DNA from: a virus
UHGV virus genome: UHGV-1363914
DNA length: 40,153 bases
Reading direction: 5' to 3' (one strand)
In this document: in pieces, positions 1 to 32,270 of the stretch
Numbering within the stretch: position 1 is the first letter of the stretch
Layout of the letters: the number at the start of each line of letters is the position of its first letter
Translations under genes and position numbers: made by a program
The notes under the pieces: generated by a model
Told to the model about the DNA's origin: nothing
Databases searched by the model: none
What the model saw: only the letters and a program-made list of their open reading frames with translations

Positions 1-129
1 TTTTATAAAAGAAAATATTTAATAAACAGTCTGGCCAGACAGTTATTATAAAAAATTTATGTCCGGAAGAAGTTTAAAATTTTTGCCGGACAAGTATTTA
101 TGAGTATTTAAAAATTTTAGAAGGTAACA

Positions 130-1631: not shown

Positions 1632-1660
1632 AAAAGACGGTTTTATATGCCGTCTTTTTT
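1632..1660. terminator. bidirectional hairpin terminator at the end of the repressor operon
   Basis: Stem AAAAGACGG / CCGTCTTTT (9 bp) with a 9-nt loop and T-runs on both strands. The loop contains the stop codon of the minus-strand ImmA-like gene. Confidence 0.5.
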
Positions 1661-2005
1661 GTTCAACACAGATATCATATATTCGTGTGATTCTGAGTAT
1701 AAATGTGAATATATGTTTAAGGTTGTTTCTATTTTCTCATGCCCTAAAGTGAATCTAATTCTTTTCTTTCTTTGGGTATTGTAGAAAATGATATAGTTTT
1801 CTCCATCATACACTGTAAATCCATCTAAAGAAACCTTAGCTTGCTCATCAAAATCAGTATATTCATAAAGAATTATATTCAATTCTTCTTTTAAACTGTC
1901 TATAAGTAAATATATATCACCCTTAGACATTTCTACTTTTGGATTTGAAATAAAGTCTGATATTATACTGTAAAGTTCTTTATAATTAACCAAAATAAAA
2001 TACAC
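1643..2005 (-). CDS. ImmA/IrrE-like (DUF955-like) protein, truncated or degenerate: no intact HEXXH
   Basis: It lies immediately downstream of the XRE repressor on the same strand, the classic immR-immA arrangement. The motif IIFYNTQRKKRIRFTLGHE resembles the ImmA consensus (I.IN....RQRFT.AHELGH), but the second His and the C-terminal half are absent. The start is uncertain (GTG at 2005 or the internal TTG). Confidence 0.4.
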   Translation of the reverse strand: MYFILVNYKELYSIISDFISNPKVEMSKGDIYLLIDSLKEELNIILYEYTDFDEQAKVSLDGFTVYDGENYIIFYNTQRKKRIRFTLGHEKIETTLNIYSHLYSESHEYMISVLNKKDGI

Positions 2006-2007
2006 CT

Positions 2008-2322
2008 CTACTTTTTCTTAAAACTTAATACAATTTTTTTAATAGTTTCCTGAGTAGAAGAATCTAAATTTTCTATTTCTCTCGCAAGCATCCTTACTTC
2101 ATCATTATCTTCTCCATTATAAAGAAAATCTAATGACACTCCAAAATAAGCTGCAACTCTCTGTACTTTATCTATAGAAGGTATTGAACTTGACCAATTT
2201 CTTAGTGTTCCATTACCTAAATCTGCCCTCCTTTCCAGTTCTGCTCTTGTAATTTCTTTTTTCTTTAGTAGGTCATCGATTCTTCTTAAAATATTTTTTC
2301 CTACATCTTTTCTGTTTTTCAT
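2008..2322 (-). CDS. XRE-family HTH repressor (cI-like), 105 aa
   Basis: The HTH reads ITRAELERRADLGNGTLRNW. GGAGG lies 7 nt upstream of the ATG at 2322. The longer track ORF (to 2478) would read through a consensus promoter and looks non-coding. The gene is divergent from the cro-like gene. Confidence 0.7.
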   Translation of the reverse strand: MKNRKDVGKNILRRIDDLLKKKEITRAELERRADLGNGTLRNWSSSIPSIDKVQRVAAYFGVSLDFLYNGEDNDEVRMLAREIENLDSSTQETIKKIVLSFKKK

Positions 2323-2382
2323 TAATAATCCTCCACAAAGTATTGGATTTCCTTTACTTTTATTAATGTTAAAAAAAAAACA

Positions 2383-2411
2383 TTGACAAATGTTAGGTTT
2401 AGCATTATAAT
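2383..2411 (+). promoter_or_regulatory. near-consensus sigma70-type promoter TTGACA-17-TATAAT
   Basis: TTGACA at about 2383, a 17-nt spacer, then TATAAT, lying in the cI/cro intergenic region. A TTAGCAT motif abuts it. It is rightward-facing. Confidence 0.4.
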
Positions 2412-2560
2412 AAGCATATGAATTTATTAGGAACTCCTTAATGTAAATAATCAGACGCTGAATATTAAATGCTACCATCTATCTTTATTGGTAGACTAGA
2501 TATATCGTTTAAAAATAAAAAATATTTGGAGTTTAGAATAAGTATTTTTTATTGTGCTTA

Positions 2561-2587
2561 CATATTAGCATATTTAGCATATTTAGC
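2561..2587. repeat. three tandem 9-bp repeats CATATTAGC / ATATTTAGC / ATATTTAGC: candidate operator sites
   Basis: The repeats are read directly from the sequence. The same TTAGCAT core recurs near 2398 and 2417. They lie between the divergent repressor and cro-like genes. Confidence 0.45.
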
Positions 2588-2676
2588 ATTTTTTGTCAAT
2601 ATATTTGCTAAGAATTTATAGCATAAAAAATGTAAAATTTACTTTTTACAATCTAATATGAAAAAAGGAGGTATAT

Positions 2677-2865
2677 ATGACAAGATTAGATTTTGAAATG
2701 GAGGTAAAAAGAGTATTAAGAGAAAAAGGTATCACTCAAGCAGAATTATCAAGACTACTTGGAATAAAACCATCTTATTGCTCTGACATAATTAGAGGAA
2801 ACAGAAATGGAGGAGATGTTAAGAAAAAAATGATTAAATTCCTTGGAATTAAGGAGGTTTTATGA
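2677..2865 (+). CDS. Cro-like small HTH regulator (62 aa)
   Basis: AAGGAGG RBS. The HTH reads ITQAELSRLLGIKPSYCSDII. It is divergent from the repressor. Confidence 0.65.
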   Translation: MTRLDFEMEVKRVLREKGITQAELSRLLGIKPSYCSDIIRGNRNGGDVKKKMIKFLGIKEVL

Positions 2866-3596
2866 CTGAACTAAGATTAAAAAATCAAATAACAAGTTTG
2901 GAATTACTGGATCAAGTAAATCTTTTTAGAAAAGAAGAGTATAAGGAAAAGTTAAAAAATAATACTCTTACGCAAGCTGAAAAGAATAGAGGAAAGTTTG
3001 TTAAATTAGAACATAAAACATTATTAGAAATAATAAGAGATGAATTTTCAGTAGAAATAAGAGAGCAAAAAATTTTGCTGTCCTCTTACAAGAACTCTCA
3101 AAATAAGGAACAACCAATGTTCATCTTAACTCTTAATCAAGCTAAACAAGTTTTATTGAGAGAAAGTAAATTTGTTAGAAGAGCGATTATATCTTATATA
3201 GAAGTATTGGAACAAGCAATTTTAGATAAAACTAAGAGTGAGTGGCTACTAACAAGACAACAAGGAAAGTTGGTAAGAAGAGAAGAAACTGATGCTATTC
3301 AAGTATTAATAGAATATGCAAAGAAACAAGGAAGTCAACATTCAGAAAAACTATATATGACTTATAGTAAGTTAGTTAATTCTTTGATAGGGATAAAAGC
3401 AAATTCAAGGGATAAGGTCGATTTTGGAATATTGATGGTAATAAGACAATTAGAAGATATGTTTACAAAACTAATAACAAGTTCTATGGAAAATAAAATA
3501 CATTATAAAGAAATTTATAAGATCTGCAAAAATCAAGGTAGTCAATTTATAGAAATTGTTAATGGGAATGTGAAAAGCTTAGGATATGTAAATTAA
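2862..3596 (+). CDS. Rha-family phage regulatory protein / antirepressor-like
   Basis: The N-terminus (ITSLELLDQVNLFRK...KLEHKTLLEIIRDEF) resembles Phage_pRha. ATGA overlap with the cro-like stop. Confidence 0.5.
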   Translation: MTELRLKNQITSLELLDQVNLFRKEEYKEKLKNNTLTQAEKNRGKFVKLEHKTLLEIIRDEFSVEIREQKILLSSYKNSQNKEQPMFILTLNQAKQVLLRESKFVRRAIISYIEVLEQAILDKTKSEWLLTRQQGKLVRREETDAIQVLIEYAKKQGSQHSEKLYMTYSKLVNSLIGIKANSRDKVDFGILMVIRQLEDMFTKLITSSMENKIHYKEIYKICKNQGSQFIEIVNGNVKSLGYVN

Positions 3597-3607
3597 AAGG
3601 AGAGAAT

Positions 3608-3742
3608 ATGGAAGATTTATATTTCAAAAATCATGAAGCAAGATTAATATTTGGGCTTGCAGAACTTGAGGGTAAGGCTCAACTAGATTTACTAGGGATA
3701 GATTTGGAACACTATTCTAATAAGGAATTGGCTAAGAGTTAG
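3608..3742 (+). CDS. small hypothetical protein (44 aa)
   Basis: AAAGGAGAG RBS then ATG at 3608. The only support is the ORF plus its RBS. Confidence 0.3.
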   Translation: MEDLYFKNHEARLIFGLAELEGKAQLDLLGIDLEHYSNKELAKS

Positions 3743-3851
3743 TACTCAGAAACAAAGAGAAAAATAGTTAATAGCAGTCATCCAAGGTTAGAAATAGCCT
3801 TAGTAAACTTGGAAAAACTTTATAAAGGGATGAGATAGAAGAGGTGTAAAA

Positions 3852-4121
3852 ATGAGAAAAATAGAAACTATACAAGATAAATTTAAAATATTTGAACATA
3901 AGGTAAGTAGACCAGTGGTGTATAGAGAAATCTACGGAATTAATCAACTTAGTGCATTTGGTAGAGATAGCTCATATTCATCTTGGGATTTTGTTGGAAC
4001 TAGCAGAGAAGTTAATGAATATGAAAAAAGATGGTGCAGCAGAGGCTCAAATGGTTTTGATTTTATAGGAGTGGAAATTATAAAAGGTTTTCAAGGACAA
4101 ACTAATTATTACGGGAAATAA
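3852..4121 (+). CDS. hypothetical early protein (89 aa)
   Basis: ORF with a GAGGTG RBS. No recognisable motif. Confidence 0.5.
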   Translation: MRKIETIQDKFKIFEHKVSRPVVYREIYGINQLSAFGRDSSYSSWDFVGTSREVNEYEKRWCSRGSNGFDFIGVEIIKGFQGQTNYYGK

Positions 4122-4131
4122 GGAGTGAAAA

Positions 4132-4254
4132 ATGAACTGTAAAACTTTTAAAAAATGGGTAAATATAATAGCTTTTCCAGCAGGAATTAAGCTAGTTGAT
4201 GCAGTTGAAATTATTGAGAAGTACATAGAAATGGAGGCTAATAATGGGAAATGA
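4132..4254 (+). CDS. small hypothetical protein (40 aa)
   Basis: AGGAGTG RBS 5 nt upstream of the ATG. A short ORF, not in the track. Confidence 0.25.
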   Translation: MNCKTFKKWVNIIAFPAGIKLVDAVEIIEKYIEMEANNGK

Positions 4255-4374
4255 TGATTTCAAAAAAGCCAGTGTAATGAAGGTTGTTAAATTTAAGGTT
4301 AAGTGGTTATTAAAACTAATTTTGTACTGCATAAATAGACCAATAGAAATTTTATTAGAATGGGCGTGATGTAT

Positions 4375-4599
4375 ATGACTGAGTTTGCAGATGTAAATAG
4401 AGTAATTGAATTATTAGGTTGTAGTCAAGCAATGGCATATAAAGCTATTAGGACACTTAATTCTGAACTTAAAGAAAAAGGTTTTTTAACTATACAAGGG
4501 AAGGTGAATGAAAATTATTTGAGAGAAAGATATGGTTTAGAAAAAAGAAAAACATCTGTTGACAGCGACCAAACTAAAACAGATGTTCAAAACAAATAG
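4375..4599 (+). CDS. small HTH DNA-binding protein (excisionase/HTH_17-like)
   Basis: The protein is TEFADVNRVIELLGCSQAMAYKAIRTLNSELKEKGFLTIQGKVNENYLRERYGL. The helix-turn-helix followed by a 'GkV....L....GL' tail is typical of MerR/Xis-like small phage regulators. The start could be 4360. Confidence 0.45.
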   Translation: MTEFADVNRVIELLGCSQAMAYKAIRTLNSELKEKGFLTIQGKVNENYLRERYGLEKRKTSVDSDQTKTDVQNK

Positions 4600-4630
4600 G
4601 GTAGGTAAACCCTTACTTACCCTTGATTTT
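4599..4630 (+). terminator. putative hairpin terminator
   Basis: Stem GGGTAGGTAA / TTACTTACCC (10 bp, one G-U pair) with loop ACCC, then TTGATTTT. Confidence 0.35.
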
Positions 4631-4665
4631 ACTACAAATAATAAAAAATATCAAGGAGGAATTTT

Positions 4666-5007
4666 ATGTTAAAAGCCAAATTTATAGACAAAATATTAGA
4701 AGTTATGCAAGAAGAAGCCCATAAAATTTGGATAGATAATAAAGAAGTTACTGTTTGCTTTAAGGATTCAAAAGATGTAGATGGTAATGCTGAAATACTT
4801 AAACATATCTATACTCTACAACTTAATAAGGTTGTTGGAGAGTACAGAATTTGTATAGATTATGAGTTTAAAAATATAGAAATTCATAAAGGAACTAAGT
4901 TTGTATGTTTAAGAGGTTTTGGAAAATATGGAGTAACAGGAATCTGGACGATGATTTTAGAAGAAATTGAAAAAGATAAGGTGAAAAATAATGAAAATAA
5001 GAGTTAA
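4666..5007 (+). CDS. hypothetical early protein (113 aa)
   Basis: ORF with an AGGAGG RBS. Confidence 0.5.
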   Translation: MLKAKFIDKILEVMQEEAHKIWIDNKEVTVCFKDSKDVDGNAEILKHIYTLQLNKVVGEYRICIDYEFKNIEIHKGTKFVCLRGFGKYGVTGIWTMILEEIEKDKVKNNENKS

Positions 5008-5290
5008 TCAGTTTTATAAGAATGTTGAATGTCCTCGTGAATTTGTTTGTGCTCATTGTGGAGCTCATGTCTATGTTATAGATCCAAAAGATAAAAGAGT
5101 AAAATACTGCTCTTCTGCTTGTGAAAAACAGTACTGGAGAGATAAATCTAAACAAAATGCAGCTTACAAAAAAAGAAGTCGTGAAAAAGTCCTTGGACTT
5201 AGAAATTACAGTGCAAAAGGTATGGCAATCAAGTTATATAAAGAAAAGAAAGAAGCTGAAGAAATGGATTGGAAGGAGAGAAAAGAATGA
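4991..5290 (+). CDS. zinc-ribbon protein (CxxC...CxxC)
   Basis: ECPREFVCAHCGAHVYVIDPKDKRVKYCSSACEKQY supplies four Cys in two CxxC pairs, followed by a lysine-rich tail. Confidence 0.5.
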   Translation: MKIRVNQFYKNVECPREFVCAHCGAHVYVIDPKDKRVKYCSSACEKQYWRDKSKQNAAYKKRSREKVLGLRNYSAKGMAIKLYKEKKEAEEMDWKERKE

Positions 5291-18219: not shown

Positions 18220-18304
18220 GGAGAGTTACATTAATGGTAAATGAGCAGTCTGCTAAGCTGTTGTCCTGATGGACTTATAGGTTCGAGTCCTATACTCTCC
18301 TCCA
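18220..18304 (+). tRNA. tRNA-Ser (anticodon GCU), class II with a long variable arm
   Basis: Manual fold: acceptor GGAGAGT/ACTCTCC (7 bp). D-stem CATT/AATG with a GG-containing D-loop. Anticodon stem GCAGT/GCTGT with loop CT-GCT-AA (U33 present). 15-nt variable arm with GTCC/GGAC stem. T-arm ATAGG-TTCGAGT-CCTAT. Discriminator T then an encoded CCA. Confidence 0.75.
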
Positions 18305-28872: not shown

Positions 28873-29214
28873 ATGAAAGTACAATTATCACAATTATACA
28901 ATTTTTGTGGAAAAGAATTTGAAGAATTGGATATAAATATTGAAGAAATGACAGGTAAAGACTTTATGCAGTGTGAAAAAGAGTTTAAAGCAAGAAATAA
29001 AGATGCAGGAGCAGTAAAAGAATTAGAAGATTCTTGGGCCGTAACAGTAGCAGCAAAAGCTCTTGGTGTTAAATACGGAGATTTATTAAATCTTGTATCT
29101 GTTGACTACTTGAAGGTGGTGAATGGGGTAAAGCGTTTTTTGAGCAAAGGCTGGGACGAGAAAGAGGATCAGAAGAATATTATAGAGGAAACAGCAGAGG
29201 AAATTGGTGCTTAA
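28873..29214 (+). CDS. tail assembly chaperone (E/G-like), zero-frame product
   Basis: Position between the tube and tape measure genes, and acidic. Confidence 0.6.
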   Translation: MKVQLSQLYNFCGKEFEELDINIEEMTGKDFMQCEKEFKARNKDAGAVKELEDSWAVTVAAKALGVKYGDLLNLVSVDYLKVVNGVKRFLSKGWDEKEDQKNIIEETAEEIGA

Positions 29215-29381
29215 TCTATCTGGATATGATAACTGAACTTTTAAGAGTTCTAAATTATTTTAAAGTTAATATGAGCTATGATTCAATGTTGGATTGTAGC
29301 TTGTATGAACTTGATTACTGGATAGCTAGGGCTAATAAGCTAGTTGAGGAAGAGGAAGAAAGGCAAAGTAAAGAAGATTAA
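28873..29381 (+). CDS. tail assembly chaperone, -1 frameshift fusion product (E+E'/GT-like)
   Basis: Slippery heptamer T_TTT_TTG at 29136-29142 in the zero frame. The -1 frame is open from 29106 through to the stop at 29379-29381. It encodes ...ITELLRVLNYFKVNMSYDSMLDCSLYELDYWIARANKLVEEEEE. Confidence 0.45.
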
Positions 29382-29383
29382 AA

Positions 29384-29406
29384 AAGAGGCTGTGGTTTAG
29401 CCTCTT
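29384..29406. terminator. hairpin terminator serving the minus-strand gene
   Basis: Stem AAGAGGCT / AGCCTCTT (8 bp) with loop GTGGTTT. A T-run follows on the minus strand only. Confidence 0.55.
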
Positions 29407-29659
29407 ATGGTGTGTTATTACATATTGTATCTATTAATGTTAGAGTTCCAAAAATATACATAATTATTGATACCATAGATATAATTTTTTGAAAAGTCGA
29501 ACCATCTGTAAAAGCTTCATAAAAACCTGCTAAAATTAACCAGCCTATTGGTGTTAGAATTAAAAATAAAGTTGTCAGAAGTATCAAACCCAAAATACAA
29601 AAGCTAAATAAAAAAGGTGATTTTTTAAAACCTTTAAATATAATTTCTTTGTTATTCAC
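29405..29659 (-). CDS. two-TM small membrane protein (84 aa), moron antisense to the tail operon
   Basis: GTG start with AGGAGG 7 nt upstream (minus strand). Two hydrophobic helices (FLFSFCILGLILLTTLFLILTPIGWLILAGF and ISMVSIIMYIFGTLTLI). Own promoter TTGACT-17-TATATT on the minus strand (about 29692-29720) and own terminator. Confidence 0.55.
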   Translation of the reverse strand: MNNKEIIFKGFKKSPFLFSFCILGLILLTTLFLILTPIGWLILAGFYEAFTDGSTFQKIISMVSIIMYIFGTLTLIDTICNNTP

Positions 29660-29744
29660 TAAAATACCTCCTTTTCCCTATTGTTTTTTATAATATATAA
29701 TATTTACTTTTAAAAGTCAACAAAATAAATGAGGAGGTGGCAGA

Positions 29745-32270
29745 ATGTCAAAAGATATGAGTTTAGTTTGGCAAATGAGTGTAGCAGGAGCAGCAGGAGC
29801 TATGACAGCACTATCTAAAGCAACCCAAGCTATGAAAGATGTGAAAGACTCTACAGAAGATTTGGTGAAATCGCAAAAAAAATTAGAAAGTTTAGACAAG
29901 GTTGCTGAGGCATATAAAAATGCTAATTCAGAATACAATAAAGCAGCTAAAAATTTAGAAAGTTTAAGAAAAGCATATTTAAAATCAAACAATGTTACTG
30001 CAGAATTTAAAGAACAAATAAAGAATGCTGAAAAACATGTTGAAAAACTTAATAAACAAAAAGAAAGACAAAAGCACATCTTTCAAGCTGCAAGAAGTGA
30101 ATTAGAAAAAGAGGGCATAAAATTAGAGGGATATAAAAAGAAATTAAAAGAAGTTAATGATGAACTTAAGAAACAGGAAAAATTAAAAAAAGATTTAAGC
30201 AAAGCACAAGCTATCTCTGATTTAGGAAGTAAATTTTCTCAAAAGGGTAGTGAACAAATTAGAAGAGGAGCAGCTACAGGAGCTGTACTAGCTATACCTG
30301 TTAAATTTTACATGGATGTAGAAGAGTCTCAAGCAGACTTAAGAAAAATTCTAGGGAAAGAAGCTGAGAAATACTATGATGATTTAGCTGAATTATCTAA
30401 GAACGGACCTCTATCACAAATAGAAATTAATGAGATTGCAGGTAGTTTAGCACAATCAGGGATAAAAGGTGAGGATATTGTAGCTTATACTGATATGGCT
30501 GGAAAAATGAAAGTAGCATTTGATATTTCTACAGATGAGGCAGGTACATTTTTAGCGAAAACAAAAGAGCAATTAAATTTATCTAAAGATGAATTATTCT
30601 CTTATATGGATACACTCAATATGTTATCTAATAACTACTCTGTTACTGCTGCTCAACTAGCCGATGTATCAGCTAGAACAGGTGGATTTGCTAAGTCTAT
30701 AAACTTATCTAAAGAATCTAATATGGCGTTTGCTACATCTCTTATATCTGCTAGCGTAAGTGCAGAGCAAACAAGTACTGTATTAGGTAAGCTATATTCA
30801 GAACTTTCTCAAGGTGCTAATACTAAGAATAAAGCGTCTGCTTTAGAATACTTAGGATTTGATCCTAGGACTATAAACAAAGAAATGGCTGAAAATGCCG
30901 AAGGTACTATCTTAAAAGTACTAGAAAGAATTAAAAATTCTAATGTTGCAGACAAGTCAGCATTGATCAGTGATATTTTTGGAAGTGATAAATCTGTAAT
31001 TAACGGATTATCGGTATTATCTGAAAACTTAGATGGAGTTAAGGAAAAACTAGACAAAGCAAAACAAGCTGTATCTGAAAATGAAAGAGTTAATGGAGAG
31101 TATGAAGACAGAATAAACACTTTATCTAATCAATTAAAGATGTTTAGGAATAATGCTTTTAATGCTCTTGCAGATATTGGAAATAGTATAGCTCCTGAAC
31201 TTAAAGAAGCTTTAAATACTTTTAAAGAATTTGCAGGAAAGATAGCTAATTTCATAAAAGAAAATCCTAAGCTAGTAGCTTTTATAGTTAAGATGGTTGC
31301 TGGATTTGCAGCTATGAATTTTGGAATGGGTGTTGCTAACAAAATATTGTTAGGTCCATTTGCAAAAGGTGTTGGCTGGTTGTATAAATTCGGGGCATTT
31401 AAAAGTAAAGGGGGACTTTTGTTTGCATTAAAAAGAATGTTTCCTCTAGCTTCAAAACTATTTGGAACGTTTATGAAGATTGGAAAATTCTTAGGCGGAA
31501 AATTCATAACTGTTATAAAAATTGTAGGTACTGCTTTAAAAATAGCTCTTACAGCAAATCCAATAGGACTTATTATAGCTGCAATTGTAGCTGTTATTGC
31601 TATATTTGTAGTTTTATATAAAAAATGTGAATGGTTTAGAAATATGGTTAATGCTGTATGGAAAGCTATTAAAGATACTTTTTCAAGTGTTTGGGAATGG
31701 ATAAAAGGTCAATTTAATGCTTTGGTAGATATTGGTGCTAAGGCTTGGAATGGATTAAAAGAGAGTGGAGCAGCTATTATTGATAAAATAAAAGATGCAT
31801 TTAAAGGTTTCTTTGATTGGTTACATAATAAATGGGAAGATTTAAAATCCTTAGGCTCTAAATTAAACCCATTCAAATGGTTTGGTAAAAAAGATAATGC
31901 TATTCCACAAAATTATTCTGGTACAAATTATTTTGGAGGTGGACTTACAACTCTTGCTGAAAGAGGAGCAGAGCTAGTAGAAATGAATAATAATTCTTAT
32001 CTAGTAAATTCTAAAACATTAGCTAATTTACCTCATGGAGCTAAAATTTTAAATAATTCACAAACAAGAAAATCTTTATCTTCAAGGGTATCTTCTTTAA
32101 AAGACAGAATAAGAAATATCTCTAATAATAATTCAAAAACAATTATAGGTGGAGATACTATAACTATCAATATTAAAGGTGGTTCTGGAAATGCTACGGA
32201 TATTGCTAGAGAAGTTAAAAGAGTAATTGAAGAAATGCAAAGTAAGAAAAGAAGGACGGCGATAATATGA
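29745..32270 (+). CDS. tail tape measure protein
   Basis: 841 aa. Coiled-coil N-terminus, TP901-type TMP core region, central hydrophobic segments. GAGGAGG RBS. Confidence 0.8.
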   Translation: MSKDMSLVWQMSVAGAAGAMTALSKATQAMKDVKDSTEDLVKSQKKLESLDKVAEAYKNANSEYNKAAKNLESLRKAYLKSNNVTAEFKEQIKNAEKHVEKLNKQKERQKHIFQAARSELEKEGIKLEGYKKKLKEVNDELKKQEKLKKDLSKAQAISDLGSKFSQKGSEQIRRGAATGAVLAIPVKFYMDVEESQADLRKILGKEAEKYYDDLAELSKNGPLSQIEINEIAGSLAQSGIKGEDIVAYTDMAGKMKVAFDISTDEAGTFLAKTKEQLNLSKDELFSYMDTLNMLSNNYSVTAAQLADVSARTGGFAKSINLSKESNMAFATSLISASVSAEQTSTVLGKLYSELSQGANTKNKASALEYLGFDPRTINKEMAENAEGTILKVLERIKNSNVADKSALISDIFGSDKSVINGLSVLSENLDGVKEKLDKAKQAVSENERVNGEYEDRINTLSNQLKMFRNNAFNALADIGNSIAPELKEALNTFKEFAGKIANFIKENPKLVAFIVKMVAGFAAMNFGMGVANKILLGPFAKGVGWLYKFGAFKSKGGLLFALKRMFPLASKLFGTFMKIGKFLGGKFITVIKIVGTALKIALTANPIGLIIAAIVAVIAIFVVLYKKCEWFRNMVNAVWKAIKDTFSSVWEWIKGQFNALVDIGAKAWNGLKESGAAIIDKIKDAFKGFFDWLHNKWEDLKSLGSKLNPFKWFGKKDNAIPQNYSGTNYFGGGLTTLAERGAELVEMNNNSYLVNSKTLANLPHGAKILNNSQTRKSLSSRVSSLKDRIRNISNNNSKTIIGGDTITINIKGGSGNATDIAREVKRVIEEMQSKKRRTAII

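Follow-up and report, generated by a model that had tools for sequence, protein, structure and literature searches.

An Antisense Moron Adjoining the Tape Measure Gene of a Fusobacterium Myophage Encodes a Small Membrane-Type Protein, a Candidate for Superinfection Exclusion

The Locus and Its Genomic Setting

The stretch of DNA analyzed here (40,153 bp, hereafter the window) is the complete genome of a Fusobacterium myophage, and it is circularly permuted since the open reading frame (ORF) of its Amidase_3 endolysin crosses the end-to-start joint. The phage is a relative of JD-Fnp2, JD-Fnp3, and JD-Fnp5, with which it shares 86–88% DNA identity in the late region. Within its tail module, a gene for a P2 gpE-like tail assembly chaperone, with the genes of the sheath and of the tube (Phage_tube, 5.9e-29) to its left, is separated by a small cassette from the gene of the tape measure protein (TMP; Table 1). 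The chaperone gene contains a P2-type slippery heptamer, T TTT TTG (29136–29142, +), where we infer a −1 frameshift by analogy with P2 E/E′. With a −1 frame free of stops up to 29381, the listed 51-aa ORF (29226..29381) represents the 3′ part of the frameshift product. JD-Fnp2_57 is the same kind of 51-aa “hypothetical protein,” i.e., the tail of a chaperone frameshift product. The TMP has a hydrophobic region at approximately aa 480–640 (hydropathy by bins; maximum 19-residue Kyte-Doolittle mean of 3.14, at aa 601–640) that is probably membrane-inserting, and its gene retains its own ribosome-binding site (RBS), GGAGGTGG. Elsewhere in the genome, a tRNA-Ser gene (anticodon GCT; 18220–18304, +) lies directly upstream of the terminase small subunit gene.

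The cassette itself measures about 350 bp and occupies the minus strand between the stop codon of the chaperone −1 frame (29381) and the ATG of TMP (29745), with a promoter, an RBS, an 84-aa ORF and a terminator in this order. Every element listed for this place in a preliminary description of the locus, namely the minus-strand ORF with its GTG start, the AGGAGG motif, the promoter and the terminator, was recovered by reading of the sequence, motif scan, and folding. GTG is the sole workable start because the first in-frame ATG occurs only at Met62. The stop codon of the ORF leads directly into the terminator hairpin, which has a folding energy of −10.6 kcal/mol (z = −5.0 compared to shuffles) and is followed by a T-run shared in part with the stop codon that closes the −1 frame of the chaperone. 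The GC content is 0.26–0.27 in the cassette compared to 0.30–0.38 in its flanks, a small gap in an AT-rich genome, and the GC skew becomes negative over the cassette stretch only, as expected of a minus-strand gene.

The 10/12 promoter match is by itself not remarkable, as such matches are common in DNA this rich in AT. In a local scan, 11 promoter-like sites turned up where shuffles gave 6.0 ± 2.4, and 16 sites of at least 10/12 were present on both strands of the whole 40-kb genome by this stricter count. As promoter-like matches thus abound, the promoter call rests on conservation, which is described below. Directly upstream of the main promoter lies a second promoter-like site (TTGACA-18-TATTTT, 10/12; 29722–29751, −), whose −35 hexamer reads as the reverse complement of the beginning of TMP (ATGTCAA) and whose equivalent in L061 scores 11/12; it could simply reflect the coding sequence of TMP, or else be a tandem promoter.

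Table 1. Positions of the features discussed in the text; coordinates refer to the window unless a locus is named.
Feature	Position	Strand	Evidence or remark
Tail assembly chaperone, P2 gpE-like, left neighbor of the cassette	28873..29214	+	Phage_TAC_7, E = 0.0016; phrog_3140, 4.7e-23
−1 frameshift extension of the chaperone (E′-like)	29136..29381	+	−1 frame open from about 29106 to the stop at 29379–29381
Intrinsic terminator	29374..29406	−	8-bp stem with 7-nt loop at 29406–29384, then TTTTTTAATC
Moron ORF, 84 aa, GTG start	29405..29659 (stop included)	−	ORF list and translation
Shine-Dalgarno AGGAGG	29667..29672	−	Read from the sequence; 7 nt ahead of GTG
Predicted sigma-70-type promoter	29692..29720	−	Scan, 10/12 matches; TTGACT (29720–29715), 17-nt spacer, TATATT (29697–29692)
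Tape measure protein, 841 aa, right neighbor of the cassette	29745..32270	+	PhageMin_Tail, 1.4e-29
Amidase_3 endolysin ORF, 210 aa	39543–40153 joined to 1–22	+	Clean reading across the end-to-start joint
ImmA-like fragment	1643..2005	−	
HTH repressor	2008..2478	−	
L007, T3-like gene	2073..2345		42% identity
L007, J-like gene	About 3861..4130	−	Apparently frameshifted
L007, W-like gene	4983..5255		73% identity; promoter and terminator present

A Polymorphic Junction in the Tail Operon

The tube protein was used to gather 76 IMG/VR loci (L022–L097), and the 63 that have an intact junction between the chaperone and TMP genes were classified. The junction is empty in 36 of these 63 loci, with a gap of only 13–15 nt between the E′ stop and the TMP ATG (e.g., L044:5020–5080); the 27 filled ones comprise 25 inserts of 358–407 nt and two truncated joints. 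Four types of cassettes were distinguished, i.e., the type of the window (W; eight loci, gaps of 363–373 nt), that of JD-Fnp2_58 (J; six intact loci with gaps of 366–369 nt, and the two truncated ones with N at the joint and gaps of 115 and 273 nt), a third type encoding 76 aa (T3; one locus, L061:4440–4860, gap of 358 nt) and a fourth encoding 104 aa (T4 type; 10 loci, gaps of 405–407 nt, e.g., L085:5020–5560) that sits in a sister lineage whose tube is 59% identical. Each of the four types is antisense, codes for a small protein whose hydrophobic helices are C-terminal and is followed by a hairpin and a T-run. The W and J types are distant homologues; comparison of the T3 and T4 types with the W/J family by hhalign gave probabilities of 4% and 0.5%, respectively, by which no common origin is demonstrated. 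The chaperone/TMP junction is a polymorphic hotspot, which is either empty or holds one of four antisense cassettes for small membrane proteins.

In the two truncated loci (L035:5030–5200 and L072:5030–5340), the J-type gene is joined at N to a second, empty-type E′ end and TMP copy. Both are probably metagenome assembly chimeras of co-occurring phages with and without the moron.

The insert is present or absent at exactly this site among phages with 92–97% identical tube proteins. The cassette is a true moron in the sense of Juhala and Hendrix, that is, an additional piece of DNA where close relatives have an unbroken sequence, and it comes with its own predicted promoter and factor-independent terminator. 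The initial proposal of an autonomous antisense moron within the tail operon is supported by this pattern and by the conserved signals, and the conservation at the equivalent position in related phages, on which that proposal had been staked, holds for a subset of the relatives. Because 36 of the 63 related junctions are empty, tail assembly cannot depend on the moron, and such a role was rejected.

Conservation and Selection

A protein search retrieved 20 clusters, all of 82–90 aa except fragments, and the gene was antisense between chaperone and TMP in every clean context examined. Across 10 diverged loci, TTGAC does not vary, and the spacing of 17 nt, the −10 region, and the position of the start are conserved, the start codon being ATG, GTG, or TTG. 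The RBS core GG(A/G)GG is found in nine of the 10 aligned loci (GGCAGG in L014). The terminator hairpin is kept in all loci; its loop varies, G-U changes occur and the stem of one copy is extended to 11 bp. The retention of these signals across the 10 loci raises the promoter match above chance level and supports the view, first taken from the window, that the gene has a promoter, RBS, and terminator of its own.

The pairwise dN/dS of the ORF is mostly 0.15–0.6, which indicates purifying but relaxed selection, and no frame disruptions occur in clean assemblies. A chance ORF surrounded by chance signals would be a natural suspicion in AT-rich DNA where promoter-like sites are frequent. It is effectively refuted, and retains almost no probability, given that the ORF and its RBS, promoter, and terminator have been retained by at least 10 diverged loci at a dN/dS below 1, that the GC skew is locally reversed and that gene callers predict the ORF in independent assemblies.

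The Encoded Protein

The moron protein has a basic N-tail (K4, K9, K12, and K13), two hydrophobic blocks by hydropathy (approximately residues 14–47 and 59–79) and an acidic C-tail. AlphaFold2 (pLDDT 85.9) predicts helices at residues 15–35, 37–51, and 55–81, the first hydrophobic block being split by a kink at the invariant Pro37, so that the number of membrane spans is either two or three. The small hydrophobic protein of membrane type that had been described at first is supported by the hydropathy profile together with the purifying selection acting on the ORF; its two helices correspond to the two hydropathy blocks, but the AlphaFold2 model shows three. Three spans with an N-in/C-out orientation would be favored by the basic N-tail and the acidic C-tail according to the positive-inside rule. 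In the model, the protein is nearly all membrane-embedded, with tiny loops and tails. Residues T29, F32, P37, W40, L43, K58, and Y68 are invariant across the W and J types, and G39 shows no variation among W-type proteins.

No homologue of known function was retrieved by sequence, profile, defense-system and fold searches. Pfam and PADLOC gave no match, PHROGs only phrog_13405 “membrane protein” at E = 0.028, and NCBIfam only STM3941_fam at E = 0.024, far below its cut-off. The PDB sequence search returned chance transmembrane matches only, and Foldseek had no match in BFVD and PDB. An exhaustive profile search of 1.84 billion representatives yielded six matches only, one of which is a spurious repetitive protein of 1065 aa. 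A GTDB genome scan gave only two loci, one of which (L008, Thiotrichales, 41% identity over 37 aa) was treated as chance. Judged by these searches, the family is tiny and does not extend beyond this phage lineage.

Two other identities were tried and rejected. The protein is not a lipoprotein, since the LFSFC context is no lipobox and Cys21 is replaced by Ser or Gly in homologues. Nor is it the holin, as a holin homologue is encoded elsewhere in the phage genome, outside the cassette, like the Amidase_3 endolysin.

Divergence and the Link with the Tape Measure Protein

With a mean amino-acid distance of 0.39, the moron is the fastest-diverging gene of the tail module, ahead of TMP (0.25), the chaperone (0.12), and the sheath and tube (about 0.05). 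Its distance matrix correlates with that of TMP (Mantel r = 0.83–0.88, p = 0.0002–0.003) in a small sample of independent loci; without the JD-Fnp2 outlier and duplicates, r amounts to 0.50–0.61 (p = 0.009–0.05). No correlation was found by Mantel tests between moron distances and those of the chaperone, the sheath, the tube, or the gene after TMP. The correlation peaks in the gene-proximal N-terminus of TMP and fades toward its C-terminus and, because it is strongest in this proximal part, physical linkage alone could explain the co-divergence. The variability of TMP along its length presents no decisive peak in the hydrophobic region. As a sign of a functional tie between both proteins, the co-divergence is suggestive and not decisive.

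Clustering of TMP showed that J-type cassettes are always accompanied by a single distinct TMP clade and that T3 is accompanied by another. Two W-type loci fall into the same TMP cluster as empty-site phages, and the association between cassette type and TMP allele is only partial.

Copies Outside Tail Operons

Copies of the moron were also found in two chromosomal contexts. In a Fusobacterium metagenome-assembled genome (L007, CAUTEN010000015.1), a chromosomal island (2073–5255) located between oppD/F-like ABC ATPase genes and yajC/amidase/prfA harbors homologues of three cassette types (Table 1) and duplicated small genes of unknown function, but no tail genes. In GCA_015473145.1 (L006, BNJS01000953.1, 5713–6409), a W-type cassette lies between copies of a 37-nt CRISPR-like repeat, GTATTGAGGGCATTCCATTTATAACAAGGTTTAAAAC, and includes about 95 nt from the start of the TMP gene as well as about 100 nt from the end of E′. 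Three copies of the repeat enclose one normal spacer of 42 nt and one “spacer” of 544 nt that is the cassette; no cas genes are present within 6 kb. As this assembly is full of frameshifts, the arrangement could be an artifact or a recombination event.

Copies outside tail operons fit a benefit to the host, and the protein might modulate the fitness of the host or the physiology of its envelope (tolerance of stress, transport, adhesion, or colonization) instead of excluding phages, as many morons have such roles (PMC3594210). This explanation is rather unlikely, considering that the protein is predicted to be almost wholly membrane-embedded, that its family is confined to this phage lineage with six representatives among 1.84 billion, that its fast divergence tracks TMP and that several unrelated small membrane proteins alternate at a single TMP-adjacent site.

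Orientation, Expression, and Lysogeny

Besides the moron, genuine minus-strand genes are limited in this genome to the pair formed by an HTH repressor and an ImmA-like fragment (1643–2478). A perfect 12/12 promoter, TTGACA-17-TATAAT (2383–2411, +), faces the early genes at this lysogeny-type switch. JD-Fnp2 encodes two integrases and a LexA-like repressor, and its moron counterpart lies on their strand. No integrase is recognizable anywhere in the complete 40,153-bp genome of the window, which makes the lysogenic setting uncertain for this phage; it may be a plasmid-like prophage or a virulent derivative. Expression in the lysogen or early in infection had been deduced from the antisense orientation, but the orientation does not by itself imply expression in a lysogen; HK97 gp15 is co-directional with the tail genes.

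On the plus strand, the terminator hairpin folds at −13.1 kcal/mol just upstream of TMP and is followed by AUGGUGUGUUAUUA, a poor U-tract, and read-through of the late operon to TMP is plausible since a good U-tract is missing. Late transcription would then have to cross the cassette, collide with the moron promoter, and make antisense RNA to the moron. Such a geometry, entailing convergent transcription, together with the hairpin and the embedding in the tail operon, could suit a cassette that mainly tunes the ratio of TMP to tube and sheath via hairpin and convergent promoter, or a gene that serves the phage's own lytic cycle through lysis timing, membrane remodeling, injection, or assembly. 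Both are very unlikely in view of the close relatives with near-identical tail proteins that do without the insert (36 of 63), the holin and endolysin encoded elsewhere, the purifying selection on the ORF with its conserved RBS and the plus-strand hairpin without a U-tract.

Proposed Function

Our preferred interpretation, to which we give a little less than an even chance, is that the moron encodes an inner-membrane superinfection-exclusion (Sie) protein acting on the TMP-mediated DNA entry of related phages. The protein would be expressed from its host-type promoter independently of the late operon, in the prophage state, if any, and/or from early infection. It would insert into the inner membrane, keeping its basic N-tail on the cytoplasmic side, and interfere with the membrane-inserting region of the TMP of related phages, by which genome entry would be blocked; HK97 gp15 is proposed, and T4 Imm reported, to act in this way. 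Late in the lytic cycle, transcription reading through the tail operon against the moron promoter would produce antisense RNA and probably silence the moron. That the three other cassette types of the site also encode antisense small membrane proteins was counted in favor of exclusion, as were the divergence that tracks TMP, the minus strand shared with the repressor genes, the copies in chromosomal contexts, and the precedents of gp15 and Imm. As homology to HK97 gp15 or T4 Imm is lacking, superinfection exclusion is here a claim that the protein works like these proteins, and not that it belongs with them.

A small, very hydrophobic protein behind a strong, constitutive-looking promoter might also be an abortive-infection or toxin-type membrane effector, i.e., a pore-former or depolarizer that kills or arrests the cell on superinfection. 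Rapid diversification fits defense genes of this kind, and antisense transcription from the late operon could regulate the effector. However, an uncontrolled constitutive toxin would be costly and the 363-nt gap seems to leave no space for a partner gene or an antitoxin sRNA: Rfam finds nothing in the cassette (and one tRNA only, outside the cassette, in the whole window), and neither room nor a second promoter is evident for an antitoxin sRNA within the cassette, although a novel sRNA is conceivable. Without a PADLOC match and with the TMP-adjacent position and co-divergence left unexplained, such an effector is distinctly improbable.

A bolder version of the exclusion proposal would make the junction a dedicated “immunity slot,” in which at least four little-related or unrelated families of small membrane proteins are each matched to the adjacent pore-forming TMP allele, TMP and immunity protein co-evolving and being exchanged as one module, and hosts collecting orphan copies such as the three types in the L007 island and the repeat-flanked copy of L006. 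This can be likened to pore-forming colicins paired with cognate immunity genes, and it is a speculative scheme that we hold to be unlikely.

If superinfection exclusion is indeed its function, the moron helps to set the host range among F. nucleatum strains. Strains that are lysogenic for moron-carrying phages, or in which relic copies persist, would be resistant to entire groups of JD-Fnp-like phages, and host range is relevant to phage therapy against cancer-associated F. nucleatum. More broadly, the junction, which is naturally empty or filled in four different ways beside matched TMP alleles, offers a tractable system to test how TMP is recognized by small membrane proteins during DNA entry.

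Comparison with Known Systems

A close counterpart is the hypothetical protein JD-Fnp2_58, also found in JD-Fnp3 and JD-Fnp5 (ON464760-2), which shares the position, the strand, the promoter type, and a near-identical terminator with the moron of the window. Both are distant homologues with 39% identity over a 33-aa core, and P0025, a close relative of JD-Fnp2_58, is tied to the moron by profile at E = 2.6e-4. However, the overall identity is only about 27–28%, and JD-Fnp2_58 is accompanied by another TMP clade, with an N-terminus that is about 50% identical. Its annotation is limited to “hypothetical.”

Several prophage-encoded envelope proteins, such as SieA of P22, Sie2009 of Tuc2009, and Ltp of TP-J34, block DNA injection as proposed for the moron, and escape from them maps to ejection proteins or TMP (PMC10883804). 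They are unrelated to it in sequence and, unlike the moron, are encoded in or near lysogeny modules and not in the tail operon; in addition, Ltp is a lipoprotein, whereas the moron protein has no lipobox. Tab of JBD26, an 83-aa moron product that blocks tail assembly with a specificity mapping to TMP (PMC10884400), is likewise a small protein from a moron inside a late operon. Its gene lies between terminase genes, it acts on assembly and not on entry, and its description gives no sign of a membrane protein, the word “transmembrane” being absent (PMC10884400).

Imm of phage T4 was reported to bind TMP and to block genome translocation (bioRxiv 10.64898/2026.03.06.709160). Similarly to the moron protein, it is small (83 aa), consists nearly entirely of membrane helices and comes from a contractile-tailed phage, although imm is an early gene located far from the T4 TMP gene and T4 is virulent. 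Comparison by hhalign gave a probability of homology of 0.7%. The invariant turn of the moron protein (residues 36–42, TPIGWLI) resembles residues 51–57 of Imm (SIIGWFI), a likeness over seven residues that is not significant; the binding of TMP by Imm reportedly depends to an important degree on its W50.

The original moron, gp15 of HK97, lies between chaperone and TMP and encodes a Sie protein of the inner membrane (PMC3594210), and its exclusion depends on the tail or TMP of the incoming phage (PMC10883804). Homology of the moron protein to gp15/YebO received a probability of 1% over nine aligned columns by hhalign. The YebO-like gp15 is shorter (62 aa compared to 84 aa), co-directional with the tail genes where the moron is antisense, and encoded by a siphovirus of E. 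coli, whereas the moron belongs to a Fusobacterium myovirus. Both nevertheless occupy the same slot between a frameshifted chaperone pair and the TMP gene, and both are small membrane proteins with their own promoter and terminator that are absent from close relatives. The window thereby extends the arrangement of HK97, with a moron between chaperone and TMP, to contractile-tailed phages of a distant phylum.
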